The notes under the pieces: generated by a model
The model's input: only the letters and a program-made list of their open reading frames with translations
Told to the model about the DNA's origin: nothing
Database searches by the model: none
Shown: positions 417-2,012 of the stretch, one piece after another
Numbering within the stretch: the first letter of the stretch is position 1
Layout: each line of letters opens with the position of its first letter
Program-made: the position numbers and the translations under genes
Virus record (IMG/VR): IMGVR_UViG_2529293044_000013
DNA: 4,509 nucleotides
Source: a virus
Taxonomy: Monodnaviria > Loebvirae > Hofneiviricota > Faserviricetes > Tubulavirales
Direction: 5' to 3' (one strand)

Positions 417-2012
417 TCAAGACCGAAGAACAATAAAGAATGAAAGCATGGAGCCAATCAGCGTCATAATCACCCTGAAAGTGGCCCTGACTTCATCGGT
501 ATCAAGCAGCACACAAAAAGTATCCAGTTGATAATCTTTATTCCAGATATTGAATGTAAAGACAGGACACTGCCCCCGTGGAATTGTCAGTGAAAAATCA
601 CGCGCAGAAGGCCACATATTCCACAATGGAGAAATGAATGATGAAGGCTCAGGAGATGAAATATCAGGCGTATCCACTGAAGGTGCAGTGCCAAAGTCAT
701 TTGACACAGTCACGTTAACATTTACCGTAGCATTACCTGTTACAGTGGTACTGCCAGAACCTGTTCCGACTCCAGCTCCTGTACCGCTACCCGTTCCAGT
801 GCCTGTACCCGTTCCAGTGCCTGTACCCGTTCCAGTGCCTGTACCCGTTCCAGTGCCTGTACCCGTACCGCTGCCTGTACCCGTACCGCTGCCTGTACCC
901 GTACCGCTGCCTGTACCCGTACCGCTGCCTGTACCCGTACCACTGCCTGTACCCGTACCGCTGCCCGTACCTCCAACGGGCTTAAAACCGGGGTCAATAA
1001 CAGGAGGGGTATATTTACCTCCAGAATTGCTGGTATCACCACCTGGTGTCGGAGGAATAGCAATAACACCAGATTCTGTAAAACTTGCAGAATCACCGAT
1101 GCGGAGGTCTACCGTAGAACGATAATTGTCTACGTCAGCAGAGGAATATTTCAATAAAAACGAAGATATCCCGCGATATTCAGAGAGGCCATCTAATTGT
1201 TCAGTCAGCCCGTTAAGAATATCTGCAATATCCTGAGATGCCAGATTATTTCCAGAGAAAGATGGCACGTGGAGAGACGATGAGAATGGATTTTCAGTGG
1301 TTGCTGCCTCGCAAGTAGAATTACCATCAGAATAAAACAGAACCTGACCGTTATCACAAAAAACAGAATCCTCACTTAACGTTACTGACCAGAATACAAA
1401 CGAACTCTGGGACCAGGAACCTCGAAAATAATAAGCGTAGTAGAATCTGTACCACTCATTATCAACGATACTCTTCGGAGGAGTATAATAAGACGACTGA
1501 AGCGAGGCTTTATCTTCAGGAGGTAAGCACTGAATAACCCGCGCAGCAGCAGAAAACGGCGAAGTACTGGTAACGTAGCAATTATCAAACCCGCCATGCC
1601 AGGCCTTGACACCCGCACTCATGGCTGGAGTGTAATAAAACGCGTTATAGCCGTTTTTATCTAAAACCAATTTTGCCACCTCCTCAGCAAAAGGTTTTCC
1701 TGCGGCATAAATTCCAAGACTGACTGTAGTTACACCAAGACCGTAAGCCAGAGTACTCCACGACATTGCTGAAGCAGAAATCCCGGCAGATGCAGCATAA
1801 TTTGATGCAAAAGACGCTGCCGCACGTGAATATCCTGATAACGTTGCCGAAATAGATGAGGCGCTGGCCCCCATTGCAGATAATTTGCGATTAATAATAC
1901 CGGACAATTCAGAAGAAAATGTTGTGGTAGTCAGTGTCGCTGTTTCAGCACAGGCGTGATTTGTTAACAAAACGTACAATAGCGACACAGAAATATTTTT
2001 CAAAAAACTCAT
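417..2012 (-). CDS. pIII-like minor coat / adsorption protein (531 aa): signal peptide, N-terminal domains, Gly-Thr/Ser linker, C-terminal membrane anchor
   Basis: Longest ORF in the window. N-terminal signal-peptide-like [22 protein letters not shown]. Multiple Cys in the N-terminal part. Long (GTGSGT)n linker at ~aa 340-420. C-terminal hydrophobic segment [26 protein letters not shown] upstream of the ATG at 2012. Domain layout and position match the inovirus pIII architecture; the N-terminal domain sequence itself is not one I recognise. Confidence 0.8.
787..966. repeat. Tandem array of ten 18-bp units inside the pIII-like gene, encoding the Gly-Thr/Ser linker
   Basis: Directly readable. 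Plus-strand units: gtacccgttccagtgcct at 805-822, 823-840, 841-858 (787-804 differs at one base); gtacccgtaccgctgcct at 859-876, 877-894, 895-912, 913-930; single-base variants at 931-948 and 949-966. On the minus strand these encode GTGTGT and GSGTGT respectively. Confidence 0.9.

Follow-up and report, generated by a model that had tools for sequence, protein, structure and literature searches.

A probable pIII-type minor coat protein with an unmatched N-terminal region in a filamentous prophage related to YpfPhi

Which protein occupies the gene III position in the filamentous phage record IMGVR_UViG_2529293044_000013? The 4,509-nt stretch of DNA analysed here (the window, meaning the whole stretch) carries at 417..2012 on the minus strand an open reading frame (ORF) of 531 amino acids (aa), which is unbroken from ATG to stop and which RefSeq E. 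coli genomes label "hypothetical protein" and nothing more. The original prediction, which did not state the strand, took the product for a pIII-like adsorption protein, and that assignment is supported by gene position, overall layout and homology of the C-terminal domain (C-domain). We put at roughly 0.8 the probability that the ORF encodes a minor coat protein of the gene III type from an enterobacterial inovirus that integrates at dif, in a broad clade with YpfPhi (and, according to the literature, CUS-1), and the same estimate covers the reading of its C-domain as a capping domain of the pIII type. The protein was divided as follows.

417..2012, minus strand: gene-III-position ORF, 531 aa, stop codon at 417-419 (ORF list).
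1947..2012, minus strand: signal peptide, residues 1-22, with MSFLK, a hydrophobic core and ACA, followed by ET (read from the sequence).
1632..1946, minus strand: Ala/Ser-rich helical module, residues 23-127, including W85 and AYGLG at 89-93 (conservation, predicted helices).
1263..1631, minus strand: variable beta-rich core, residues 128-250, with Cys145/162, the invariant Cys219/234 and an aromatic stretch at 188-200 (AlphaFold2 [AF2] model, family identity).
975..1262, minus strand: "post" module, residues 251-346, L..QDIA..LNGL..Q ... Y.G ... DV..YR ... GD..S..KYTPPV (family conservation).
741..974, minus strand: Gly/Thr/Ser linker, residues 347-424, with a period-18 DNA tandem repeat at 788-971 (Tandem Repeats Finder [TRF], composition).
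420..740, minus strand: C-domain, residues 425-531, with a PLWxMWPxARDF motif, Cys482..Cys500, an anchor at residues 510-529 (window 426-485) and the tail LRS (profile matches, predicted structure).

The mature protein is predicted to start at ET, directly after the ACA of the signal peptide, and relatives have signal peptides of equivalent n-h-c layout with AxA-type ends (YADA, RADA, ALA). A Gly-rich linker and a C-terminal anchor in the pIII pattern had been predicted, and both were found: the linker at residues 348-421 and the anchor at 510-529, which is the sole strongly hydrophobic stretch of the protein (Kyte-Doolittle peak) and is followed by the tail ending in LRS. A second membrane span at residues 86-105 was considered and rejected, since no 19-residue window there rises above a Kyte-Doolittle mean of 1.2; such a span is also unlikely in that it would leave the Cys-bonded domains in the cytoplasm. 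Cysteines occur at positions 21 (inside the signal peptide), 145, 162, 219, 234, 482 and 500, and the expected presence of several in the N-terminal region is thus borne out by Cys145, 162, 219 and 234. The number of Cys is even in every mature family member, which fits a disulfide-bonded periplasmic or virion-exposed domain.

Gene order points to gene III. In an intact relative, the prophage of E. coli AST20 (locus L001), the order seen in the window goes on with a Zot-type pI gene and then a secretin gene, and the window and L001 together give the M13 reference order II-V-VII/IX-VIII-III-VI-I-IV. Pfam matches in L001 are Zot, Secretin and DUF2523, the last with an E value of 2.9e-9 for the whole protein at the pVI position. 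In four further loci (L014, L015, L016 and L017), gene III likewise follows the coat gene and precedes the genes for pVI and pI (Zot). The AST20 prophage adjoins a sequence that agrees with E. coli dif at 27/28 positions (L001 4800-4827) and forms a tandem array with a 7952-bp unit (L001 6001/13953). Integration at dif in tandem arrays has been described for CTXphi, CUS-1 and YpfPhi (PMC4266046).

The C-domain ties the protein to other pIII-position proteins. Against PHROG it matched phrog_7187 (E 7.8e-23) and phrog_3942 (E 1.2e-13), both annotated "unknown function"; the latter is a full-length family of pIII-position proteins from Inovirus D_HF5_61 and Dulem virus 52. When GTDB species representatives were scanned with Zot as the seed, 80 loci were obtained, and the pIII-slot ORF taken from each (70+ ORFs) was searched with a hidden Markov model (HMM) of residues 440-531. 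About 45 loci matched, with E values from 1e-21 to 1e-8 (YpfPhi, 1.6e-18), and the C-domain profile of the clade has the pattern ILxP...P...F....CP....F......D..C.L.E plus the anchor. Profile-profile alignment with hhalign gave 98.2% and E 2.8e-14 for the C-domain against the YpfPhi type, and 97.6% and E 2.8e-12 against the pair from D_HF5_61 and Dulem virus 52. Both Cys482 and Cys500 are invariant across the family. The original prediction would have been overturned by a lack of likeness to any phage adsorption protein together with a top match to an unrelated secreted family; the matches of the C-domain are to proteins at the pIII position. Three other searches gave no match: tblastn of the whole protein and of the C-domain against 50,697 phage records (none significant), a word-indexed protein search with the C-domain alone, and a scan of GTDB species representatives for the C-domain pattern, which was empty because those representatives do not contain this phage.

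Among the loci of the Zot scan, Y. pestis NCTC5923 holds a tandem pair with a spacing of 8742 bp, which fits the 8.7-kb genome of YpfPhi. The closest Zot in that scan (55% identity) lies on L018, a 3014-bp contig in a metagenome-assembled genome labelled Aerococcus sp., a Gram-positive bacterium; this placement is probably a binning artefact and not the true host.

The gene for the YpfPhi protein lies in the matching slot, ahead of Zot and the pVI-position gene, and the Zot of YpfPhi is 38% identical to that of the present phage. YpfPhi and this phage type share dif integration in tandem arrays, and both pIII-position proteins stand outside any Pfam family. By contrast, the central N-terminal region of the YpfPhi protein has no detectable similarity to that of the window protein, its helical module does not match significantly (E 6.7), and it lacks a long Gly/Thr repeat linker. 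No phage particles were produced once YPO2277, a gene of the YpfPhi morphogenesis module, had been disrupted (PMC4266046). We mapped the YpfPhi ORF (locus L031) to YPO2277/PuvA by gene order and from that review, so that YPO2277 would be the homologue of the present ORF. Clade membership of CUS-1 is argued through YpfPhi, following the literature. The closest deposited phage records by Zot are D_HF5_61 and Dulem virus 52 (39.5% and 38.5% identity), which have the identical gene order and pIII-position proteins of 552 and 531 aa. Their C-domain is homologous, and a weaker likeness extends to the Ala-rich helices at the N-terminus and to the "post" helix; by contrast, their central region is unrelated and their linker is short and Pro/Asp-rich. 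These proteins too are annotated only as "hypothetical" (phrog_3942, related to phrog_7187).

The pIII of the Ff phages (M13/f1/fd; PHROG 8482) shares with the window protein its gene position, including a place after the terminator behind the coat gene, and the succession of signal peptide, N-terminal region, Gly-rich linker and C-domain. The two also agree in how the C terminus is laid out, with a Cys-pinned beta hairpin, a membrane helix and a short basic tail. In f1 pIII, a Cys354-Cys371 hairpin is followed by the M helix (PMC10175506), and the AF2 prediction for the present C-domain places two strands between Cys482 and Cys500 and then a long helix, at low confidence in the predicted local distance difference test (pLDDT). 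The two proteins differ in that the window protein has one linker and not two, built of (GT)/(GS) and not of GGGS/EGGGS units; in that the TolA-binding N1 and pilus-binding N2 domains of Ff are not recognisable in it by sequence or fold; and in that its partner at the pVI position is a DUF2523 protein, where that of Ff is DUF5455.

What, then, is the N-terminal region (N-region; residues 23-346, 324 aa)? It had been described as about 320 residues that could not be matched to M13 N1/N2, and this description holds. The region matched no Pfam family even at E 10, and searches of known folds and of M13/Ff N1 and N2, by sequence and by fold, revealed no likeness. Searching the PDB by single sequence and with profiles returned linker noise and no relative of the N-region, and the sole NCBIfam match, to a TafF fimbrial protein, falls inside the repeat linker (E 0.016; 14.4 bits against a cut-off of 420). 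Close relatives are few: two clusters in a word-indexed search of 5.8 billion proteins, 8 proteins in an exhaustive HMMER scan of 1.84 billion representatives (those with a named source come from E. coli or Salmonella), and 13 proteins in a profile search, these 13 all named E. coli or Salmonella enterica and all "hypothetical". IMG/VR added 13 loci with the N-region, including two more divergent variants, L014 and L015. Among complete E. coli genomes the N-region occurs in 27/5,426, always at 98.7% DNA identity or above, and the L014/L015 pIII variants were found there in two strains at 84-86% identity or in none. To date the central N-terminal domain has turned up only in E. coli/Salmonella records and in IMG/VR contigs. 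The genomes listed as matching are mostly human isolates, O166:H15 strains among them, and strains frequently hold 2-4 copies of the prophage. Many NCBI entries for the gene are "partial", cut at contig ends, probably because the 18-bp repeat breaks short-read draft assemblies.

Comparison within the family resolved the N-region into three parts of unequal constraint. We compared the window protein (type A) with type B (P0002, L011-L013), which is 64% identical to it across the N-region. Residues about 32-125 are almost invariant between the two types. The ratio of nonsynonymous to synonymous rates (dN/dS) between A and B was 0.05-0.06 in the helical module, 0.21-0.27 in the core, 0.10-0.13 in the "post" module and 0.11 in the C-domain, and identity to the window protein across five types was 39-78%, 23-54%, 35-72% and 35-95%, respectively. 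The original prediction placed a Ser/Ala-rich low-complexity stretch after the signal peptide. Its 41-residue string is present at 45-85 and its composition is biased (Ala 19% and Ser 17% over residues 23-127); it is not, however, a spacer, and belongs to the best-conserved N-terminal module. We conclude that it is not filler, since it is near-invariant between variants that are only 64% identical, has the lowest dN/dS (0.05) and is predicted to be helical. The module also has an invariant AYGLG after a conserved Trp, a hydrophobic, Gly-rich segment below the membrane-span threshold. In the AF2 model the helical module is predicted helical and the core is predicted beta. The core is the highest-confidence part (pLDDT about 70-86); its invariant Cys219 and Cys234 flank a predicted hairpin, and the 13-residue aromatic-rich string quoted earlier was located in it, at residues 188-200.

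Outside the family, the beta-core HMM matched none of the 70+ pIII-position ORFs below E 0.05. The "post" module gave weak matches at consistent positions in many clade members (E 1e-4 to 0.06) and aligned with the YpfPhi type at an hhalign E value of 7.4e-4. For the helical module, matches outside the family were locus L059 (E 1.3e-6) and phrog_7187 (E 0.008), with the others above 0.05. The N-region may therefore be a conserved two-part scaffold carrying a variable insert, and these matches lend weak support to homology of the scaffold beyond the family.

Linker and N-region also vary by copy number and by exchange. The 74 residues of the linker at 348-421 are 49% Gly, 36% Thr and 12% Ser, and their coding DNA is a tandem repeat with an 18-bp unit at window 788-971 (TRF, 10.2 copies, 96% matches). 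Repeat copy number differs among near-identical prophages (loci L003-L013), and the linker spans 68-92 aa in type-A copies that have only a few residue differences in their flanks. A sliding nucleotide comparison of the window with the type-B locus L013 gave the following identities.

259-618: 93-100%.
619-2328: 52-82%.
2329-2752: 91-98%.

With flanks at 91-100% and an intervening block at 52-82%, a cassette of about 1.7 kb has been exchanged between otherwise near-identical phages; the swapped block takes in all of the N-region and the linker, together with the upstream part of the C-domain and an upstream 56-aa ORF. In keeping with this, dS between types A and B was 1.6-3.3 across the N-region (saturated) and 0.27-0.29 in the C-domain. 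A swapped cassette and a tether of variable length are as would be expected of a module for receptor or host-range specificity. This interpretation draws on the core being the most divergent part with the highest dN/dS, on the far higher dS of the N-region than of the C-domain, on the block exchange and on the even number of Cys.

Together, these features suggest how the protein could act. The signal peptide would direct export by Sec, and helix 510-529 would anchor the protein in the inner membrane with the remainder in the periplasm, where three disulfides would form (the even count is observed, the pairing presumed). At the end of assembly the C-domain, with its disulfide-pinned hairpin and anchor helix, may join the DUF2523 protein and cap and release the filament, leaving the Gly/Thr/Ser tether to present the N-region at the virion tip. 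There the variable, Cys-bonded beta core (128-250) would be the likely primary receptor binder, and the helical modules (23-127 and 251-346) might carry a step common to the clade, such as engagement of a co-receptor (TolA) or membrane penetration. N-region, linker and 56-aa ORF behave as a recombination cassette, and the repeat-encoded tether readily changes in length.

Tip proteins determine the host range of filamentous phages, and some of these phages, such as CTXphi, CUS-1 and YpfPhi, bring in virulence traits or modulate them. A divergent pIII N-domain that fits no class is the usual case in an inovirus not yet characterised. The finding is therefore not very surprising and overturns nothing: it adds a new protein, so far unannotated, to the known inovirus gene-III class. 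What is new here is the organisation as a conserved scaffold with a swapped cassette. The E. coli/Salmonella family offers several natural alleles of one scaffold that differ in the central cassette, together with intact tandem prophages in sequenced human isolates, and these are convenient material for domain swaps and receptor mapping. The assignment also improves annotation, as both the protein and its superfamily are "hypothetical" and without a Pfam family.

Several results weigh against the assignment to the pIII type. Against the C-domains of Ff, IKe and If1 pIII, hhalign gave a marginal E value of 0.096, and a 38-sequence clade profile gave E 0.01 with a probability of 4%; marginal as it is, this alignment stays colinear through the two Cys and into the beginning of the anchor. 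The AF2 model of the C-domain, built from 5 sequences, is weak (mean pLDDT 53.7), and a Foldseek search of the PDB with this poor model failed to retrieve f1 pIII. Because of the marginal profile score, the poor model and the Foldseek result, we read the relationship to Ff as "works like", with family membership unproven. The suggested structural check of the N-region was informative in part: an AF2 model was made from 11 sequences and matched no known fold, but it is itself weak (mean pLDDT 55). dN/dS is <1 throughout the protein and dS is saturated, which leaves no direct sign of diversifying selection. A virion location and receptor binding are argued for the family from its anatomy and by analogy with Ff. 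Finally, the copy in the window lacks pI, has a truncated pVI gene and has a disrupted rep gene. Its other features are listed here; all genes of the window are on the minus strand.

4166-4509: end of IS100 (an insertion sequence [IS] of the IS21 family) in rep, replacing its first 42 codons (megablast).
3096-4165, minus strand: Rep_trans replication protein (Pfam 1.4e-21; phrog_453 1e-101).
2751-3086, minus strand: 111-aa ORF, assigned to the gene V position by its place (phrog_14411, unknown function).
2573-2746, minus strand: 57-aa hydrophobic ORF at the pVII/pIX position, directly upstream of the coat gene (ORF list).
2322..2570, minus strand: major coat protein gene (gene VIII position), 82 aa according to RefSeq (phrog_2186 "virion structural protein", E 6.3e-14; Phage_Coat_B weak).
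2280..2305, minus strand: intrinsic terminator with stem AAGGGCGGA, loop UAU and UCCGCCCUU, then a U run (fold of 2180-2330, minus strand).
2017..2187, minus strand: 56-aa hydrophilic ORF between the coat gene and gene III (ORF list; RefSeq "hypothetical protein").
259..399, minus strand: start of the DUF2523 gene (pVI position), whose first 47 codons run out of frame into sequence of the secretin gene (alignment to intact L001).
130-399, minus strand: out-of-frame chimeric ORF of 89 aa left by the deletion (comparison with L001).

In comparison with L001, the window lacks 1301 bp at 258/259, and the junction shows a microhomology of 3 bp, CCA. Lost with this stretch are the C-terminal half of the DUF2523 gene, zot (pI) in its entirety and, from the secretin gene, the 5' end with its start codon and signal-peptide region. 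At the other end of the window, the rep ORF as listed continues into IS sequence with a TTG start. Neither the deletion junction nor the IS100 junction is present in the 5,426 complete E. coli genomes. Megablast of the window matched the IS100 end alone among phage records and nothing among plasmids. As judged from these lesions, this prophage copy is defective and cannot assemble virions by itself, though its gene III ORF is intact. With pI absent, pVI truncated and rep cut, the gene could work only if complemented.

The gene may thus be an inert remnant here, intact only through the recency of prophage decay and idle unless another copy supplies pI, pVI and Rep. We regard the chances of this as even. 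The two lesions, half of pVI, zot and the secretin 5' end lost in one and the first 42 rep codons in the other, and the absence of both junctions from complete genomes speak for it. Against it, the ORF is full length, its N-region has 99.8-100% DNA identity to copies in intact tandem prophages, and the 2-4 copies often present per strain make complementation in trans plausible. This possibility bears on activity in situ and not on the identity of the protein, for which a gene-III-type minor coat protein remains our reading.

Within that assignment, the division of labour in the N-region could be drawn further. The helical module, with its invariant W-x3-AYGLG, and the "post" helix might constitute an undescribed entry module that replaces Ff N1 across the YpfPhi-related clade and engages a co-receptor or penetrates the membrane, with the beta core as a plug-in specificity cassette. 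We hold this proposal to be tentative and rather unlikely; if it were true, the small family would be a tractable route to the receptor pathway of YpfPhi-type phages. A different pIII analogue can be imagined in which the conserved helical modules themselves bind the receptor and the core is a tolerant spacer or a surface for evading immunity or defence. The helical module is indeed the most constrained part (dN/dS 0.05), and the broad host range of YpfPhi, for which no receptor, and no pilus receptor, has been identified (PMC4266046), fits a conserved target such as TolA. However, near-identical phages have swapped the N-region as one complete cassette, and the core, which retains an invariant Cys pair, is where the model is folded with confidence, a pattern expected of a specificity domain, so that we consider this alternative improbable.

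Least credible, and in our judgement very improbable, is that the gene encodes a phage-borne accessory envelope protein of the bacterium, an adhesin or fitness factor and not a virion tip protein: the product would be exported, Cys-bonded and membrane-anchored with a repeat-variable stalk, like many surface adhesins, and a mutant of CUS-1 puvA, first found as a fitness locus, had lowered fitness in vivo (PMC4266046), but every related locus has the gene in the one fixed gene-III slot, with the coat gene on one side and pVI/pI on the other, its C-domain co-varies with the structural module, disruption of the YpfPhi counterpart stops particle production (PMC4266046), and no adhesin or other non-phage Pfam match was obtained, the TafF match in NCBIfam being sub-threshold and in the repeat linker.

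We return to the gene-III-type minor coat protein and its neighbours. The counterpart of the 57-aa hydrophobic ORF is unannotated in the RefSeq record of the intact prophage, where a gap remains at L001 9926-10105. The 56-aa ORF is served by a separate GAGG ribosome-binding site and ends in a TGA 4 nt ahead of the gene III ATG, an arrangement that suggests translational coupling with gene III. By eye its product has a strand-helix-helix pattern, like a ribbon-helix-helix protein; matches to helix-turn-helix proteins and regulators were weak (E about 0.04), and a PDB search gave no match. Such a DNA-binding-like protein would be encoded inside the structural operon.

A scan for consensus promoters and terminators produced nothing above chance and overlooked the terminator at 2280-2305. 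This element follows directly on the stop of the coat gene and consists of a 9-bp GC-rich stem, a 3-nt loop and a U run. The fold of region 2180-2330 on the minus strand has an energy of -37.7 kcal/mol (z -4.28), and 0/200 shuffled sequences were as stable. Ff phages have a terminator at the equivalent place, after gene VIII.

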